From an uncultured Clostridia bacterium (lineage in GTDB: Bacteria > Bacillota > Clostridia > Christensenellales > UBA1242), in NCBI GenBank assembly GCA_947089305.1, contig CAMUJQ010000001.1, positions 1-44,403 on the forward strand: a DNA stretch of 44,403 bases, given 5' to 3'. Below, piece by piece: positions 3,067-40,636 of the stretch. The notes beneath the pieces were generated by a model. It saw only the letters and a program-made list of their open reading frames with translations. It did not search any database and was not told the DNA's origin. The position numbers and the translations under genes were made by a program. The stretch's first letter is position 1. The number at the start of each line of letters is the position of its first letter.

Positions 3067-4113
3067 TTAAAGCGGCAAACTTGAAACTGCAACAAGGTCA
3101 CTATCGGCGCAAGCCGCAGTTTTTTCATTCATTAATTTAAAATACCCTTCACTTGCAATCATTGCTGCATTATCAGTGCATAAATTTAAAGGTGGAACAA
3201 TTAATTTAATTTTATTTTGTTCACAACTTTTTTTAAATTCCTCCTTTAAATAATTGTTAGCACTAACTCCTCCACATATTACAAGTGTTTTAGATCTACT
3301 TTTTTTAACTATAGGAATAACTTTTTCCAACAATTGTTTTATCGCTAAGGTTTGAAAAGTGTATGCAACATCTGCAACAACAATTTCTTCTTTTTTATTA
3401 AGCATATTATTAACATAATTTAAAACAGCTGTTTTAAGACCGCTATAACTAAAATTATCTTTTTTATTATCGCGATAATTTAATGCAATCATATTTTTTC
3501 CGTTTTTTGCAAGGCGTTCAACATTTGGTCCGCCAGGATAACTAAGTTTTAATACTCGAGCAACTTTATCAAAAGTTTCTCCAATCGCATCATCTAAAGT
3601 TGTTAAAAGCATTTTTTGTTTAGTGTAAGTTTTAATTTCAAGCAGTGCAGTATGTCCACCAGAAACAACTAAACTATAAAAAGGCGGTTTTAATTTTTTA
3701 TCTATTATGTAATTAGCTGCAATATGCCCGCGAATATGATTAACTGCAATTAAAGGAATATCTAAACTTTCTGAAAGTGCTTTTGCATAGTTTACGCCAA
3801 CCATTAACGCGCCAATTAGTCCTGCTCCATAAGTAACAGCAATTGCAGATATATCTTCTTTTTTTATACCTGCTGTTTTTATTGCTTCATCAACAACATT
3901 GTTTATTGCCATAATGTGATTTCTACTTGCAACTTCAGGAACAACTCCACCAAATTTCTTGTGAATGTCAATTTGACTAGAAACAATATTGGATAAAACT
4001 TCTCGGCCATTTAAAACAATACTTACACTTGTTTCATCACAACTAGATTCAATTCCTAGAATAATACATTTGTTTTTAAAACTTTTTAATTCTTTTTTGG
4101 TAACTTTTCTCAT
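3067..4113 (-). CDS. tsaD: tRNA N6-adenosine threonylcarbamoyltransferase TsaD (Kae1/Gcp family)
   Basis: 348 aa containing ILGIESSCDETSVSIV, GVVPEVASRNH and the HIRGHI metal-binding motif, all classic for TsaD. Its start codon overlaps the upstream stop by 1 nt (TAATG). Confidence 0.92.
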   Translation of the reverse strand: MRKVTKKELKSFKNKCIILGIESSCDETSVSIVLNGREVLSNIVSSQIDIHKKFGGVVPEVASRNHIMAINNVVDEAIKTAGIKKEDISAIAVTYGAGLIGALMVGVNYAKALSESLDIPLIAVNHIRGHIAANYIIDKKLKPPFYSLVVSGGHTALLEIKTYTKQKMLLTTLDDAIGETFDKVARVLKLSYPGGPNVERLAKNGKNMIALNYRDNKKDNFSYSGLKTAVLNYVNNMLNKKEEIVVADVAYTFQTLAIKQLLEKVIPIVKKSRSKTLVICGGVSANNYLKEEFKKSCEQNKIKLIVPPLNLCTDNAAMIASEGYFKLMNEKTAACADSDLVAVSSLPL

Positions 4114-4973
4114 TATTTAATTTTTTCACCCTTTATTTTTATTGCACATAAACTCAAGAAAATCATAAGTACAATAATTCCTGCCGTTGTTAATCCCGCA
4201 CTCAACCAACAAACCCATGGTAAAGTAGCTTTTGTTATTGCTTGGGCTGTAAATACAAAAGGTGTGAAACTTTGAAGAGCAACTGAAGTTCCTGCAATTT
4301 TAACTGTTACACTCGCAAGCACTGAATCTACAACAATAATTAAAATTAAACCTATAATAACTGTAAGAGCAGGCTTTTTGGTTGCTGAATTAATACCTAA
4401 AATTAAAATTGTTAAAAATAAAATATATACTAGTATCATTCCATAACTATAAAAGGCTTCTCCTATTGCTTTTCCTTTTGTTATATCAGTTAATACAAAA
4501 TCTCCATTAGGCAAAATTTCCATGGTTGCGCCTGGCTCGCAAAATATTAAACATAACACAAAATGCAAAATAAATGCTGATATTAAAGAAATTAAAATTG
4601 TTAATGTTATTGCTAGAATTCTTGCAATAACTAAATATTGAGGTTTAATACCACTTTCAAGAGGCAAAATCCATTTCTTTTCTTTGATTTCACGACTCAT
4701 GTAATTGCGCAAATAAATAATTAGTAAAAGTGCAAAATAGGAAGCCAAAAAGTTTACAAACACAGTTGTTGCGTTTTTATATGTAAATTTAAAGGTTTGC
4801 ATTAAAATTTCATCAACTTCCATTCCAGGAAGTTTAAACAAAAAATGCATTAATGCTAAAACTGCAAAAGCAAATAAAACTAGCGCCAAGGAAATTCCTA
4901 AAAAAATATAAAACTTTTTAGTGCGCATTACTTCACGCCATTCTTTTTTAAAAACTGCTAAAAATTCGCTCAT
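4113..4973 (-). CDS. ABC-2 type transporter permease
   Basis: 286 aa with about 6 TM segments. It is translationally coupled by 1-nt overlaps to the ABC ATPase upstream and to tsaD downstream. Confidence 0.65.
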   Translation of the reverse strand: MSEFLAVFKKEWREVMRTKKFYIFLGISLALVLFAFAVLALMHFLFKLPGMEVDEILMQTFKFTYKNATTVFVNFLASYFALLLIIYLRNYMSREIKEKKWILPLESGIKPQYLVIARILAITLTILISLISAFILHFVLCLIFCEPGATMEILPNGDFVLTDITKGKAIGEAFYSYGMILVYILFLTILILGINSATKKPALTVIIGLILIIVVDSVLASVTVKIAGTSVALQSFTPFVFTAQAITKATLPWVCWLSAGLTTAGIIVLMIFLSLCAIKIKGEKIK

Positions 4974-6028
4974 TATTTTTCCTCCTCCGTTTTATCTTTT
5001 TCGTTTTTCTGAGAAGGATTATTTTGTCTATTAAGAACTTTTTGAATTAACGATTTAGTTTCTTCTGAAATTAAATCACTATTTACTTCTTTTTCAATTG
5101 TTTCTTTTTCTTCTTTTCTTTTTTTATTTCCAGCAAGCAAAAATATTTCTTCAATGCTACTCTTTTTTAAACTAAAACCGCTATACGGTGTTTTAAGATT
5201 TTTAATGGCTTTAAGTGTTTCTTGATTTTTTCCGTTTACAAAATTTAAATTTACACCGTCTTTAACTTTATAAGCTTTTTCACAAATATCCAATTTAGAA
5301 AGTTCTCTAATTAAATCGCCAACATTTTCATCTTCACATTCTATAAAATAAACATTTTTTTGATAAGCTTTTAATAATTCACGAACAGTGCCTGTAATTT
5401 GAATTTCACCATTAACAATTAACCCAACTTTTGTGCACACTTTTTCAATATCAGTTAAAATATGAGTTGACAAAATAATTGTTTTTCCTTCTTCACTTAA
5501 CTCTTCAATTATGCTTAAAACCTCTGCACGACCTTTAGGGTCAAGTGCACTTGAAGGTTCGTCTAAAAGAACAATTTCAGGGTCGCTAACAAGGCCTGCT
5601 GCAATTCCAAGACGTTGACGCATACCTCTACTAAATCCCTTTATACGTTTATCAGCCGCTTCTTCTAAATCTACTTTTCTTAAAAGAGTGTTAGTTAAAA
5701 GACGTAACTCTTCTTTTTTTAATTTTTGAGGAGCAGCTAGAAATTCCAAATATTCTCTTGCTGTTAAAAAATCATGCAATGCAGGTATATCTAAAATATA
5801 TCCAACTTTACCTTTTAATTGATTTAAATTTTTTATTACTTCTCCGTCTAATTCAACAGTACCACTTGTAGGCATTAGAACTTGACTGATGATATTTAGC
5901 AACGTTGTTTTGCCCGCTCCATTTTCTCCAACAAGACCAAAAACTTCACCTGCATTAATTTCAAGGTTAATGTTTTTAAGAACTTGTTTTTCTTGAAACG
6001 ACTTATTTATGTTGTTTAATTTTAACAT
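4973..6028 (-). CDS. ABC transporter ATP-binding protein with C-terminal extension
   Basis: Walker A GENGAGKTT, signature FSRGMRQRL and Walker B LLDEPSS are present. About 110 extra C-terminal residues end in a Lys/Glu-rich tail. Confidence 0.88.
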   Translation of the reverse strand: MLKLNNINKSFQEKQVLKNINLEINAGEVFGLVGENGAGKTTLLNIISQVLMPTSGTVELDGEVIKNLNQLKGKVGYILDIPALHDFLTAREYLEFLAAPQKLKKEELRLLTNTLLRKVDLEEAADKRIKGFSRGMRQRLGIAAGLVSDPEIVLLDEPSSALDPKGRAEVLSIIEELSEEGKTIILSTHILTDIEKVCTKVGLIVNGEIQITGTVRELLKAYQKNVYFIECEDENVGDLIRELSKLDICEKAYKVKDGVNLNFVNGKNQETLKAIKNLKTPYSGFSLKKSSIEEIFLLAGNKKRKEEKETIEKEVNSDLISEETKSLIQKVLNRQNNPSQKNEKDKTEEEK

Positions 6029-7451: not shown

Positions 7452-7528
7452 GCGCCGCTAGCTCAGCTGGATAGAGCGTTGGTCTACGGAACCAAAGGTC
7501 AGGGGTTCGAATCCCTTGCGGCGCACCA
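7452..7528 (+). tRNA. tRNA-Arg (anticodon ACG), CCA encoded
   Basis: Hand-folded cloverleaf. Acceptor GCGCCGC/GCGGCGC, anticodon stem TTGGT/ACCAA, loop CTACGGA, T-arm AGGGG-TTCGAAT-CCCTT, discriminator A and CCA. Confidence 0.93.
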
Positions 7529-7530
7529 GA

Positions 7531-7551
7531 AATGGCTTTCGCCATTTTTTT
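7531..7551 (+). terminator. intrinsic terminator directly after tRNA-Arg
   Basis: AATGGC-TTTC-GCCATT hairpin followed by a T run. Confidence 0.6.
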
Positions 7552-7656
7552 ATGCTTGCAAGAATTCGAGCAAGTATATTGACTTGCAATTGCACTTTGT
7601 GCAATTCCCCTGACTAAAGTCAGGGCTGACGCGTTCACTTTGTTTCCGCTATAAAG

Positions 7657-7862: not shown

Positions 7863-8666
7863 ATGATAAGTGAATTAAAGTTTATGATTGACATAGTTGA
7901 AAAAGCGGCTTGCTTTTTAGATGAAAAAGTTGAAGTTAGAACAAAAGGCGGCGAAACTGACCTTGTTACTAATCTTGATGTGAAAATTGAAAAATTTTTA
8001 ATAAATGAAATAAAAAAAACTTACCCAACTTTTGATATTGTAAGTGAAGAAGAAAATTCACAAAAACAAGTTACAAAAAATTGTTTTATTATTGACCCAA
8101 TTGATGGCACAATAAATTTTGCAAATAATTTACCTTTATTTGCAATTCAAATGGCATGTGTAAAAAATGGCAAAACAGTGGCCAGTGTTTTAAATTTTCC
8201 TAAAATTAATGAACTTTATTATGCCGACAAAGACGGGGCATTTTTAAACGGCGAACAAATTAGTGTTAAAGTTGTTCCAATTAAAAATACTTTATATGCA
8301 ATAGATGGCACCAATAGATTACCCGCTATTGTTAGAATGAGAAAACACTCTGTAAGCATGCGTAACTTTGGCGGAGTATGTGTTTCTATGGCGTTTGTTG
8401 CAAGTGGGCGAATTCATGGTGCTGTTTTTAGATCTGATAAGGTGTGGGATTATGAACCTGGCATATTTCTTGCTAAAATGGCTGGTGCAGCAACTTTAAG
8501 CATTTCTGGCTTTCACTGTGCGGCTATGAATGAAGAATTTTTAAACATTCTTAAACTAGAAACAGCTAAAAAAGTTAACAAGCCAAAGGTATTTGTGCTT
8601 CACTCTCTAAATGCCGACACTCTTGAAACTTGGGGGGGGCGACACAAAAAGTTATTTAGAAAATAA
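7863..8666 (+). CDS. inositol monophosphatase family protein (SuhB/IMPase-like); its last 11 codons lie past the G8 tract and are probably out-of-frame tail
   Basis: It has the DPIDGT(I)NF metal-binding motif, an EE motif (VSEEE) and WDYEPG. ATG 7863 follows GGAGAG, whereas the track used TTG 7851. The frame reads straight into a hydrolase N-terminus (KVFVLHS...) before the G8 tract at 8632-8639. Confidence 0.85.
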   Translation: MISELKFMIDIVEKAACFLDEKVEVRTKGGETDLVTNLDVKIEKFLINEIKKTYPTFDIVSEEENSQKQVTKNCFIIDPIDGTINFANNLPLFAIQMACVKNGKTVASVLNFPKINELYYADKDGAFLNGEQISVKVVPIKNTLYAIDGTNRLPAIVRMRKHSVSMRNFGGVCVSMAFVASGRIHGAVFRSDKVWDYEPGIFLAKMAGAATLSISGFHCAAMNEEFLNILKLETAKKVNKPKVFVLHSLNADTLETWGGRHKKLFRK

Positions 8667-9150
8667 TGATTTAGATTGTTTTATGCCTTCATTTCCTATT
8701 CGCGAAAAAAGTAGTTACCAAGCTTTTGATGAAATTTTATCAACGTATTTAGAAAATAATAAACTTAATAAAGAATCAATTGTTATTTGTCATTCAATTT
8801 CAAACCCTTATTTTATTCGTTTTTGTAAAGAACATAATTTTGTACCCGCACACTATATTGCCGTTGCACCTAAACTTATTTATAAATACCCATTTGATAG
8901 AAAAGATTATTTTGTAAAAATTGCAAATGCGGCTTACCCTACAAAAGAAATTTTAAATTATAAAAACAAATTTAAAAATGTCTATTGCTTGTATTCAGAT
9001 GAAGACGATAATAACATAGAAGAGTTCCATCGCTTTGTAAAAGATTTTAAAGCAAGAGACATGTATTTAAAAGGCTATAACCATTTCGATGGCTACCACC
9101 GCATTTACAAAATCCCCGAACTAATAAAACTTTTAGATGAGTTAATATAA
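8611..9150 (+). CDS. YdeN/RBBP9-like alpha/beta serine hydrolase, apparently separated from its N-terminal strand by a +1 frameshift
   Basis: Candidate nucleophile Ser in IVICHSIS, with later D (SDEDD) and H (GYNHFDG) as triad candidates. The expected first beta-strand (KVFVLHSLNADTLETW) is encoded in the upstream IMPase frame, 5' of the G8 run. Confidence 0.6.
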   Translation: MPTLLKLGGGDTKSYLENNDLDCFMPSFPIREKSSYQAFDEILSTYLENNKLNKESIVICHSISNPYFIRFCKEHNFVPAHYIAVAPKLIYKYPFDRKDYFVKIANAAYPTKEILNYKNKFKNVYCLYSDEDDNNIEEFHRFVKDFKARDMYLKGYNHFDGYHRIYKIPELIKLLDELI

Positions 9151-29660: not shown

Positions 29661-29903
29661 ATTTTCATTATATCATACTGCTTTGCAATTTGTTGCAGTT
29701 TTAGCTTATATATTTTTGAAGGTTTTTAATTTTTTTACTATAAAAAAACTTTTTAAATGGCAAACTTGAACTAAGGGCAAAAATTATTTTTAATAATAGG
29801 CAATTTAGCCCTAAGCAACATAGCAGATTCGCCACAAAAAAAGTTACATAAACTAAAAATTTTTATTTACACAAAGCTAAAATTTGGAGCTAAAGCTTAT
29901 TTT

Positions 29904-29978
29904 TGGAGCTGGTGGTGGGGATCGAACCCACTCTCTCGACATTACCAATGTCGTGCTTTCCCATTAAGCCACACCAGC
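29904..29978 (-). tRNA. tRNA-Thr (anticodon GGT), CCA encoded
   Basis: The reverse complement has GCTGGTG...CACCAGC acceptor, stem CGACA/TGTCG, loop TTGGTAA and T-arm GTGGG-TTCGATC-CCCAC. A TTGACA-17-TATTAT promoter lies at 29988-30016 on the minus strand. Confidence 0.92.
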
Positions 29979-35440: not shown

Positions 35441-35530
35441 GGAGAAATACCCAAGTGGTTAAGGGGCTCCCCTGCTAAGGGAGTAGGTCTGTTAAAGGGC
35501 GCATGGGTTCAAATCCCATTTTCTCCGCCA
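35441..35530 (+). tRNA. tRNA-Ser (anticodon GCT), class II with long variable arm, CCA encoded
   Basis: Acceptor GGAGAAA/TTTCTCC, anticodon stem CTCCC/GGGAG, loop CTGCTAA, T-arm ATGGG-TTCAAAT-CCCAT. A TCCC-GCAA-GGGA + T7 terminator follows at 35533-35551. Confidence 0.92.
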
Positions 35531-35667
35531 ATTCCCGCAAGGGATTTTTTTATTTTTAAAAATGGGATTTAAAAGGCTTTGCCTTTTTGTGCGTTATCGC
35601 ACTGAACCCATGCTCGCATGGCTGACGCTTTGCTCTCGAAAACAAGTTTTCTTCGCTTGCTATATAA

Positions 35668-35711
35668 CAAATCCCAAATTCTACCGCCAATTCCCGCAAG
35701 GGATTTTTTTT
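35668..35711 (+). repeat. imperfect direct repeat of the tRNA-Ser 3' end plus its terminator (copy of 35510-35551), attR-like
   Basis: CAAATCCCAAATTCTACCGCCAATTCCCGCAAGGGATTTTTTTT compares with CAAATCCCATTTTCTCCGCCAATTCCCGCAAGGGATTTTTTT. There are 2 substitutions and a 1-nt insertion, all in the tRNA-derived part. Confidence 0.85.
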
Positions 35712-40625: not shown

Positions 40626-40636
40626 ACAATTATTAT

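Follow-up and report, generated by a model that had tools for sequence, protein, structure and literature searches.

Two tRNA genes of contig CAMUJQ010000001.1 from an uncultured Firmicute, tRNA-Arg(ACG) (locus A) and tRNA-Ser(GCT) (locus B), are each followed by a small unit in which pieces of the gene's own T-arm are arranged on a common plan, and these units are most likely what remains, in miniature and without genes, of mobile elements that integrate into the T-loops of tRNAs. The whole contig of 44,403 nt, hereafter the window, has a G+C content of approximately 28–29%. A preliminary description made from the sequence had reported, at each locus, a hairpin re-using a T-stem strand, a shared 9-mer, GGCTGACGC, and a second tRNA 3' end resuming at C56; all the strings it listed were recovered at the positions given. 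The feature is real and non-random, and it is more elaborate than first described.

At both loci the parts follow the same order. First comes the tRNA gene, including the first of two C56-to-CCA ends and its terminator; next are an inverted 3'-T-stem/T-loop box and a first insert (insert L); then come an inverted 5'-T-stem box, a 4-nt loop, a direct 5'-T-stem box, a second insert (insert R) and a second C56-to-CCA end. The hairpin noticed earlier is, at both loci, the junction between the inverted and direct 5' T-stem copies: it is present as claimed, but its left arm is not free-standing and forms the end of a complete inverted T-arm copy. The inverted and the direct T-arm copies are both interrupted within the T-loop, the former by insert L (32–37 nt) and the latter by insert R, which replaces G53-T54-T55 with 31 nt at locus A and 46 nt at locus B.

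At locus A, the T-arm of the intact tRNA-Arg(ACG) gene (7452–7528, plus strand; called by ARAGORN and scoring 65.8 bits with the Rfam tRNA model) is the source of the pieces copied downstream. The first direct repeat copy, from C56 to CCA plus GAAAT (7508–7533, plus strand), is the functional 3' end of this gene and belongs to an exact 26-nt repeat. A terminator scan placed the intrinsic terminator, AGAAATGGC TTTC GCCATTTTT followed by a T run, at 7528–7551 (plus strand); it includes the GGCTTTCGCC that the preliminary description had pointed out. By k-mer mapping, the outer half of the inverted T-arm copy, GCAAGAATTCGA, lies at 7558–7569 (minus strand) and is the reverse complement of TCGAAT(CC)CTTGC, which comprises the 3' part of the T-loop, the 3' T-stem and the start of the acceptor. 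Insert L (37 nt, 7570–7606, assigned to neither strand) is taken up entirely by two perfect hairpins, GCAAGT/ACTTGC and AATTGCAC/GTGCAATT, and none of 300 shuffles was equally stable (DNA fold z = −4.6). The inner half, the exact 8-mer CCCCTGAC (7607–7614, minus strand), is the reverse complement of GTCAGGGG in the 5' T-stem and provides the left hairpin arm; the inverted copy as a whole is imperfect, differing by one substitution and one deletion. The variable-loop end and 5' T-stem are then copied directly in TAAAGTCAGGG (7615–7625, plus strand), which supplies the loop and right arm of a hairpin that was predicted in every fold. Insert R (31 nt, 7626–7656, plus strand) is unstructured (fold z ~0), shows anchored similarity to locus B and has the conserved ends CTGACGC (7626–7632) and GCTATAAAG (7648–7656). 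It adjoins the second direct repeat copy, the displaced tRNA 3' end from C56 (7657–7682, plus strand), which matches the first at 26/26 nt. The two copies are 149 nt apart, with a spacer of 123 nt between them.

Locus B presents the same anatomy around the intact tRNA-Ser(GCT) gene (35441–35530, plus strand; ARAGORN, Rfam 61.6 bits). From the sequence and a repeat search, its first direct repeat copy runs from C56 to CCA and on through the terminator hairpin CCCGCAAGGG and a T run (35510–35551, plus strand). Exact k-mer matches identified both halves of the inverted T-arm copy: the outer half, AAAATGGGATTT (35559–35570, minus strand), is the exact reverse complement of tRNA-Ser nt 71–82, a 12-mer of a length seen in 1 of 2000 shuffles, and the inner half, TGAACCCATGC (35603–35613, minus strand), is that of nt 61–71 and holds the left hairpin arm. 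This inverted copy is perfect over 22/22 nt (tRNA-Ser nt 61–82) and is cut within the T-loop by insert L (32 nt, 35571–35602, assigned to neither strand). All of insert L lies in two perfect hairpins, the terminator-like AAAAGGC/GCCTTTT and GTGCG/CGCAC, with 0 of 300 shuffles equally stable (DNA fold z = −6.1). The direct 5' T-stem copy, CGCATGG (35615–35621, plus strand; sequence and k-mer mapping), forms the right hairpin arm. Insert R (46 nt, 35622–35667, plus strand), delimited by sequence, fold and anchored similarity, has the conserved ends CTGACGC (35622–35628) and GCTATATAA (35659–35667) on either side of a middle with a weak GAAAAC/GTTTTC hairpin. The second direct repeat copy starts at C56 (35668–35710, plus strand; sequence and repeat search) and carries three substitutions and one indel, all in the acceptor part, with an exact 27-nt tail that includes the terminator. 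The repeats, approximately 43 nt with four differences, are 158 nt apart and enclose a 117-nt spacer. The second copy has retained exactly the 8–9 nt that pair with the inverted box, and the neighbouring acceptor part has diverged.

The tRNA-Ser terminator, inside the locus B repeat, also carries CCGCAAGGGATT (35535–35546 and 35694–35705), the exact reverse complement of tRNA-Arg nt 59–70 (T-loop, 3' T-stem and the beginning of the acceptor). Among 2000 shuffles, one gave a match this long. The Ser unit may have had an Arg-type ancestor of which this is a trace, or the match may be coincidental, owed to a GNRA-loop terminator.

The two inserts behave in opposite ways when the loci are compared. 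Insert L shows no sequence similarity between A and B (z ~1), though at both loci it consists of two perfect hairpins (z −4.6 to −6.1). The opposite applies to insert R, which is unstructured (z ~0 to +0.8) but has conserved ends and follows the shared pattern CTGACGC...GCTATAWAR: in the window GGCTGACGC is found at 7624 and 35620 and nowhere else, and GCTATA stands at −9 to −4 relative to C56 at both loci.

We rejected chance on the strength of position-anchored tests and an enrichment for each gene's own T-arm, and not on the 9-mer alone. As a free word anywhere in the two spacers, a shared 9-mer was reached by 81 of 5000 composition-weighted dinucleotide shuffles (p ~0.02), and a comparable one was found in ~2% of real window chunks. 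The earlier judgement that the 9-mer is unlikely by chance therefore fails for the free word and holds once position is counted: the identical 7-nt prefix of insert R, anchored at the junction, was equalled in 18 of 20,000 shuffles. The junction-anchored suffix, with 7 of 9 nt matching, was also equalled in 18 of 20,000, and an end-anchored global alignment of insert R from A and B gave z = 3.6 (3/3000 shuffles). That the non-tRNA insert adjoining C56 has homologous ends is thus upheld by anchored tests at ~1e-3 each. A plain longest-common-substring test of the spacers was swamped by T runs and misleading, and the 7-nt direct T-stem copies were not significant on their own in a shuffle test. 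Words of at least 6 nt from the gene's own T-arm covered 21 nt of the locus A spacer versus 4.3 expected (28/5000 shuffles, p 0.006) and 36 nt of the locus B spacer versus 9.5 expected (3/5000 shuffles, p 0.0006); control searches of the spacers with the other tRNA's T-arm, or with the rest of the own tRNA, stayed at chance level. This mapping and enrichment support the view that both loci are built on one plan, in which the tRNA-derived parts differ according to the tRNA. On these data we regard as established the anatomy, the homology between the insert R ends and the own-T-arm specificity.

Whole-unit single-strand folds, whether linear or circular, were more stable than those of shuffled sequences, with z from −4.2 to −5.9 for A and from −2.2 to −3.0 for B. 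For single-stranded DNA alone the ranges were −4.2 to −5.5 (A) and −2.2 to −3.0 (B), and the RNA folds gave −5.9 (A) and −2.6 (B). In the predicted fold, the outer and inner boxes recreate the T-arm duplex of the tRNA gene, and the inserts branch off at the T-loop. The stable RNA folds speak for a structured RNA, one of the readings offered in the preliminary description, here taken as a non-coding RNA (a small RNA or tRNA-trailer device) in which hairpins surround a single-stranded GGCUGACGC and a tRNA-like 3' tail follows. Two further features agree with it, namely that the conserved sequence lies within the sole unstructured segment and that locus B ends in a good terminator. Even so, we consider an RNA of this kind very unlikely. 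A promoter scan found no sigma-70-like promoter within either unit, and one terminator (A) or two (B) separate the tRNA promoter from the conserved segment, while locus A has no terminator past its second copy. Among the Rfam 15 covariance models only tRNAs scored; the other best matches had E values of at least 0.058 and, with permissive thresholds included, fell far under the gathering scores. The motif is, moreover, conserved in one species only. A separate candidate, CTGACG...TATAAA as a promoter, was rejected on its spacing, 18 nt in A versus 33 nt in B, and on the negative scan.

The geometry of the repeats bears on a second explanation, an error of replication with no recombinase involved. 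Template switching or snap-back at the T-arm and terminator hairpins would have produced a direct/inverted/direct duplication that later decayed, and the common ends of insert R would reflect chance or gene conversion between the loci. T-arms of the GGTTCGAATCC type are indeed near-perfect palindromes, the layout resembles that of tandem inversion duplications, and the 9-mer taken alone reaches only p ~0.02. This origin nonetheless appears quite improbable to us: the intervening sequence lacks the inverted copies that template switching would give, and the T-loop inserts are left unexplained. In addition, A and B both have the repeat boundary exactly at C56, the two ends of insert R are similar at ~1e-3 each in the anchored tests, and downstream of the three other tRNA genes of the window (tRNA-Trp, tRNA-Thr and tRNA-Gly) there is nothing comparable to the Arg and Ser units.

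We favour the reading that A and B are two homologous, retargeted, integrase-less att-site cassettes derived from T-loop-specific recombination, and, judging from sequence, we put the chance that it is correct at about even. Several observations argue for an origin in site-specific recombination at the T-loop: the repeat geometry, the C56 boundary common to both loci, and a functional first end paired with a decaying second one. At both loci the direct repeats correspond to the tRNA's 3' part and have their boundary inside the T-loop, there is evidence that these tRNAs serve as integration targets, and analogous units, described below, occur at prophage and integrase borders. The second copy at locus B, with a broken acceptor strand that varies among strains, is as expected of a displaced, unselected copy. 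Since the non-tRNA segment is common to A and B and all tRNA-derived boxes differ, a single family with exchanged specificity parts is indicated.

In the mechanism we propose, a T-loop-specific recombinase, most likely a tyrosine integrase, would recombine at the T-loop (C56); the incoming DNA would bring a new C56-to-CCA end with its terminator, and the old 3' end would be shoved downstream. Between the repeats there is no cargo but recombination-site material alone. The T-arm boxes are look-alikes of recombinase half-sites in inverted and direct orientation, with the 3' T-stem side outermost and the 5' sides head to head, insert L contributes two palindromes, and insert R is a conserved linear segment immediately 5' of the crossover point. 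Both units would stem from one element family, insert R being homologous and every tRNA-derived box having been exchanged to suit the new target. An excised circle would join GCTATAAAG, CGAATCCCTTGCGGCGCACCAGAAAT and GGCTTTCGCC, in that order. The origin of the units through a recombinase, the role of the boxes in protein binding and the direction of descent are our inferences.

Sequences of related strains place the units in time. Both are present in all five strains sampled. The Ser unit is nearly unchanged in strains L001, L135 and L150, and the sole difference within it is one substitution in the acceptor part of the second copy in strain L135. The metagenome-assembled contig CAMUNJ010000050.1 (L130), from another strain, is 99.9% identical to the window from the tRNA-Arg anticodon loop onward, the whole unit included. 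Its first 2338 nt are foreign DNA (2.3 kb) that replaces the 5' half of tRNA-Arg and joins at window position 7481; this DNA encodes a Cro/C1-type helix-turn-helix (HTH) regulator and a 398-aa open reading frame (ORF) without family matches, and seven arm-like TGCAAAA/TTTTGCA repeats lie beside the junction. It resembles the right-hand end of an element that has integrated at the anticodon-loop sublocation. The junction makes tRNA-Arg a live integration target in the window species and the unit older than the L130 event. A metagenome contig (L141) with an identical tRNA-Arg has only the terminator downstream and no unit, in a different gene neighbourhood. Relatives sought through the flanking TMEM164-family and inositol-monophosphatase genes had 62–74% protein identity and no longer kept synteny at either locus.

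In L135 (JGI 3300006217, a 99%-identical strain), positions 337–341 compared with window 35459–35501 reveal a 43-nt deletion inside tRNA-Ser(GCT) that begins in the D-loop and reaches to where the 5' T-stem starts, and ARAGORN no longer calls a gene there. Either the sequence has truly been lost or the assembly may be at fault.

The fixation of the units in all strains would also suit a host-kept decoy or lock, in which disrupted T-arm copies bind an integrase in a form that cannot recombine and so shield or stabilise the tRNA locus. The two extra T-arm copies are broken exactly in the overlap (T-loop) region, which keeps the half-sites and would disable strand exchange. We regard such a role as highly improbable; it is purely inferential, no precedent for it was found, and L130 shows that the tRNA-Arg locus is still invaded, at another sublocation.

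Units of a comparable design were recovered from unrelated contigs. We scanned viral contigs for a T-arm followed within 20–50 nt by its inverted T-loop, and found direct/inverted/direct T-arm units of 61–119 nt in three of them (L158, L161 and L162). In L158 (13650–13737), a T-arm-to-acceptor fragment is followed by 22 nt, an inverted T-arm and a second direct T-loop-to-acceptor copy with a 61-nt period; on one side of the unit is a prophage endolysin gene and on the other, downstream, an ORF that, judged by eye and without a family search, is host-like and of MATE type. The L162 unit (8282–8413) consists of a direct fragment, an inverted T-arm, a small hairpin and a direct T-arm that is itself interrupted in the T-loop by a 20-nt hairpin insert. 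In L161 (919–1128), tRNA-Ser(TGA) is followed by an inverted T-loop piece, hairpins and a second 20-nt 3' copy 119 nt on; this unit lies between two tRNA-Ser genes, approximately 320 nt upstream of a tyrosine integrase gene (1451–2608). A metagenome contig of 41% G+C (L142; ERZ1643251 NODE-3288) has, at 1–218, three tandem units of 81–82 nt that are 97% alike, each with the same tRNA-Arg T-loop-to-CCA sequence and, 6 nt on, the inverted T-arm copy AAGGGATTAGAACCCCTG; the array is upstream of a short-chain dehydrogenase gene and is absent from the related contigs L145 and L146. Like the window units, those of L158, L161, L162 and L142 begin with a tRNA, whole or as its 3' end only, and continue with an inverted copy of the T-arm or T-loop and a second direct 3' copy. 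They differ in that their inserts have no sequence similarity to those of the window and none has CTGACGC...GCTATA; the inverted copy is unsplit in L158, L162 and L142, whereas it is split in the window units. A second viral scan, with a TTCAAAT-type T-loop, returned mostly random or coding matches and no clear further examples. In one viral contig (L157), a large serine recombinase gene with Resolvase and Recombinase domains (3828–5468) lies at the contig end, adjoined by a tRNA 3' fragment and then inverted T-arm-like sequence (5625–5690).

Among the three readings listed in the preliminary description, att-arm remnants or a mini-element fit best, on the C56 starts, the functional first end, the L130 element and the units at L158 and L161; there was no integrase found and no sign of current mobility. 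The units appear fixed and are probably inert, unless an integrase encoded at another site can still mobilise them in trans.

A number of results weigh against the favoured recombination origin. Scanning of 36 ORFs revealed no recombinase gene in the window, and the 123- and 117-nt spacers have no room for the integrase gene that an integrated element would carry next to one att site. The full-length, recombinase-bearing relatives that the preliminary description proposed to look for did not appear either: blastn of both units against phage genomes and plasmids gave no match, and neither the strict motif nor the tRNA-Arg and tRNA-Ser 3' ends matched anything in viral contigs. The strict motif, GGCTGACGC N10-40 GCTATA NNN C N AATCC, was also searched in 185,579 species with one genome each. 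It gave 12 matches, 11 of them random in sequence unlike the unit (ten at loci of 47–67% G+C) and one in the window species, so that no third copy of the unit was found among these genomes. There was no presence/absence polymorphism among the five strains, and the comparison covers two loci only. The site architecture is also unusual. In a textbook attR, a 5' T-stem-like core site abuts the T-loop; here no inverted half-sites directly flank a 6–8-bp overlap, the 5' T-stem-like half-site lying 31 nt (A) or 46 nt (B) from C56, and this gap, together with the second, inverted and split T-arm, is not predicted by standard integration. Two independent deletions to ~120 nt would be a coincidence, which implies that the units were already small on arrival or spread; the known examples are all small (61–158 bp), which would not be expected if they were remnants of random deletion. 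For a tyrosine recombinase, a 150-bp double-stranded circle would be sterically awkward. Elsewhere, the tRNA-Arg 3' end occurred in six metagenome contigs, none of which had the unit, and a loose form of the motif was discarded because every match in viral contigs was coding or random, including a coding-sequence family with one identical 31-nt match.

The wider gene content of the window is unexceptional. Its ORFs are mostly ordinary metabolic, transport and RNA/DNA-handling genes, and the genes neighbouring the units encode an HTH regulator, inositol monophosphatase, CmpB, a TMEM164-family protein and DUF4180. Candidatus Caccovivens is the nearest taxon-named homologue among the matches listed, with 54% protein identity. 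A Pfam scan that took in 36 ORFs of the window detected no Phage_integrase, resolvase or transposase domain; outside it lay six more ORFs of 100 aa or longer (mostly overlapping) from that part of the window and the four ORFs past position 40,626. ARAGORN called five tRNA genes, those for Arg(ACG), Ser(GCT), Trp, Thr and Gly, and extension of the contig through its end genes yielded no additional tRNA. At the tRNA-Thr 3' end (29873–29910, minus strand) there is a 19-nt tandem duplication with 84% identity, which takes in the last 7 nt of the tRNA (AGCTCCA) and a small AAAGCT/AGCTTT hairpin; it is a much smaller 3'-end duplicate, of a different kind from the Arg and Ser units. The inositol-monophosphatase-family gene at 7863–9150 is divided into two overlapping ORFs (267 aa and 179 aa), where homologues have ~429 aa, and this split is probably a frameshift, either a pseudogene or a sequencing error.

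tRNA genes are classic landing sites of prophages and genomic islands, and short duplicates of tRNA 3' ends beside them are usually dismissed as scars. The two loci show that the inside of such "scars" can follow a reproducible design: the target T-arm is copied both ways, each copy is interrupted at the T-loop, and a conserved non-tRNA segment sits at the crossover, the whole being refitted between tRNAs. If the units are relics only, they record the att arms and the specificity change of an unknown family of T-loop-specific recombinases in uncultured gut Firmicutes. If they are true substrates, they would constitute a new minimal kind of mobile DNA with its target specificity held in DNA structure, of interest for programmable integration.

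Among known systems, the attL/attR pairs left by tRNA-targeting elements are a close comparison. Integration into tRNA genes has reportedly been classified by sublocation (Williams, 2002). Mycobacteriophage Ms6, at tRNA-Ala, is an example of a tyrosine-integrase att site at the T-loop sublocation (PMC1762012). Such pairs and the window units both have repeats of the tRNA 3' end that start in the T-loop, an element-supplied end that keeps the tRNA intact, a displaced copy downstream and a tRNA that is recurrently targeted (L130). The units depart from them in having neither integrase nor cargo, approximately 120 nt between the repeats, a 5' T-stem-like site 31–46 nt from the crossover and an extra inverted, split T-arm.

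The cis-mobilizable elements (CIMEs) of the ICESt1/ICESt3 integrative and conjugative element (ICE) family are flanked by att sites, have no recombination or transfer genes and are thought to be mobilised in trans (PMC5704250). The units resemble CIMEs in their att-site flanks and in the absence of recombination or transfer genes. CIMEs, however, measure kilobases and derive from recognisable ICEs with the same att sites, whereas the units measure 149–158 bp and no parent element was found, an autonomous relative being absent from the viral contigs, phages and plasmids searched.

Miniature inverted-repeat transposable elements (MITEs) and foldback elements are likewise small and non-coding, with inverted terminal segments and strong fold-back. 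The units lack a short target-site duplication, exist in two copies, and have "terminal repeats" of 26–43 nt of tRNA that differ between the units, each matching its own tRNA, and no transposase family is implied. Other candidates were dropped for want of any defining feature, namely a group II intron remnant, a retron, IS200/IS605 or IS91 ends, an IS110 bridge RNA, a CRISPR/CAST homing guide and a resolvase res site; for the retron and CRISPR-type guide, no adjacent reverse transcriptase, cas genes or repeat array was found.

The architecture of the units also recalls DNA sites that recombine as folded single strands. Integron attC sites have nested inverted boxes in the order R''-L''...L'-R', an R' consensus of GTTRRRY and inter-box spacers of 5–8 nt, and CTX-phi attP(+) is a folded hairpin. 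With both, the units have in common two nested inverted box pairs round a short loop (7558–7569/7657–7668 and 7607–7614/7619–7625 at locus A, and likewise at locus B), a crossover located where the outermost direct box begins, one strand's capacity to rebuild a target-like duplex, and variable sequence on a conserved architecture. By analogy, the units could be, or could once have been, autonomous substrates of a structure-reading recombinase: one strand would rebuild the double-stranded T-arm of the target with inserts L and R extruded at the T-loop, the ~150-nt unit would be inserted through exchange of one strand at T55/C56 and subsequent replication, and box swaps would retarget it. Such a model would account for the 31–46-nt gap, the inverted split T-arm and the small size, 60–160 nt being too small for double-stranded circles and fine for single-stranded ones. 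The order of boxes along the strand is that of attC (R'' L'' loop L' R'), the linear and circular single-stranded DNA folds stand far above shuffles in stability, and the second copy at locus B has kept just the nucleotides that pair with the inverted box. An inverted T-arm accompanies a direct copy in every analogous unit (L142, L158, L161 and L162), and the three tandem units of L142 resemble a small cassette array. We nonetheless judge the model unlikely. Both strands of the helix are copies of the tRNA, so the pairing gives no independent evidence of structural selection; neither an excised form nor polymorphism was seen, and no integrase, of integron type or other, lies nearby. The boxes come from the tRNA T-arm and not from GTTRRRY or dif, the outer box reading CGAATCC or CAAATCC, and the repeats extend over 26–43 nt. 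The inter-box spacers are 31–46 nt long and structured, against approximately 5–8 nt in attC. More doubtful still is a previously undescribed class of gene-less, 60–160-nt tRNA-T-loop cassettes that would have a folded-strand site, with an outer helix from the 3' T-stem side and an inner one from the 5' T-stem side, exchange a single strand at T55/C56 and encode the target in their own DNA. If that class exists, it would be a tRNA-directed analogue of attC and CTX-phi attP(+) and among the smallest site-specific mobile DNAs. Taken against all these systems, the window units are best filed as tRNA att-site remnants or cis-mobilisable mini-elements.

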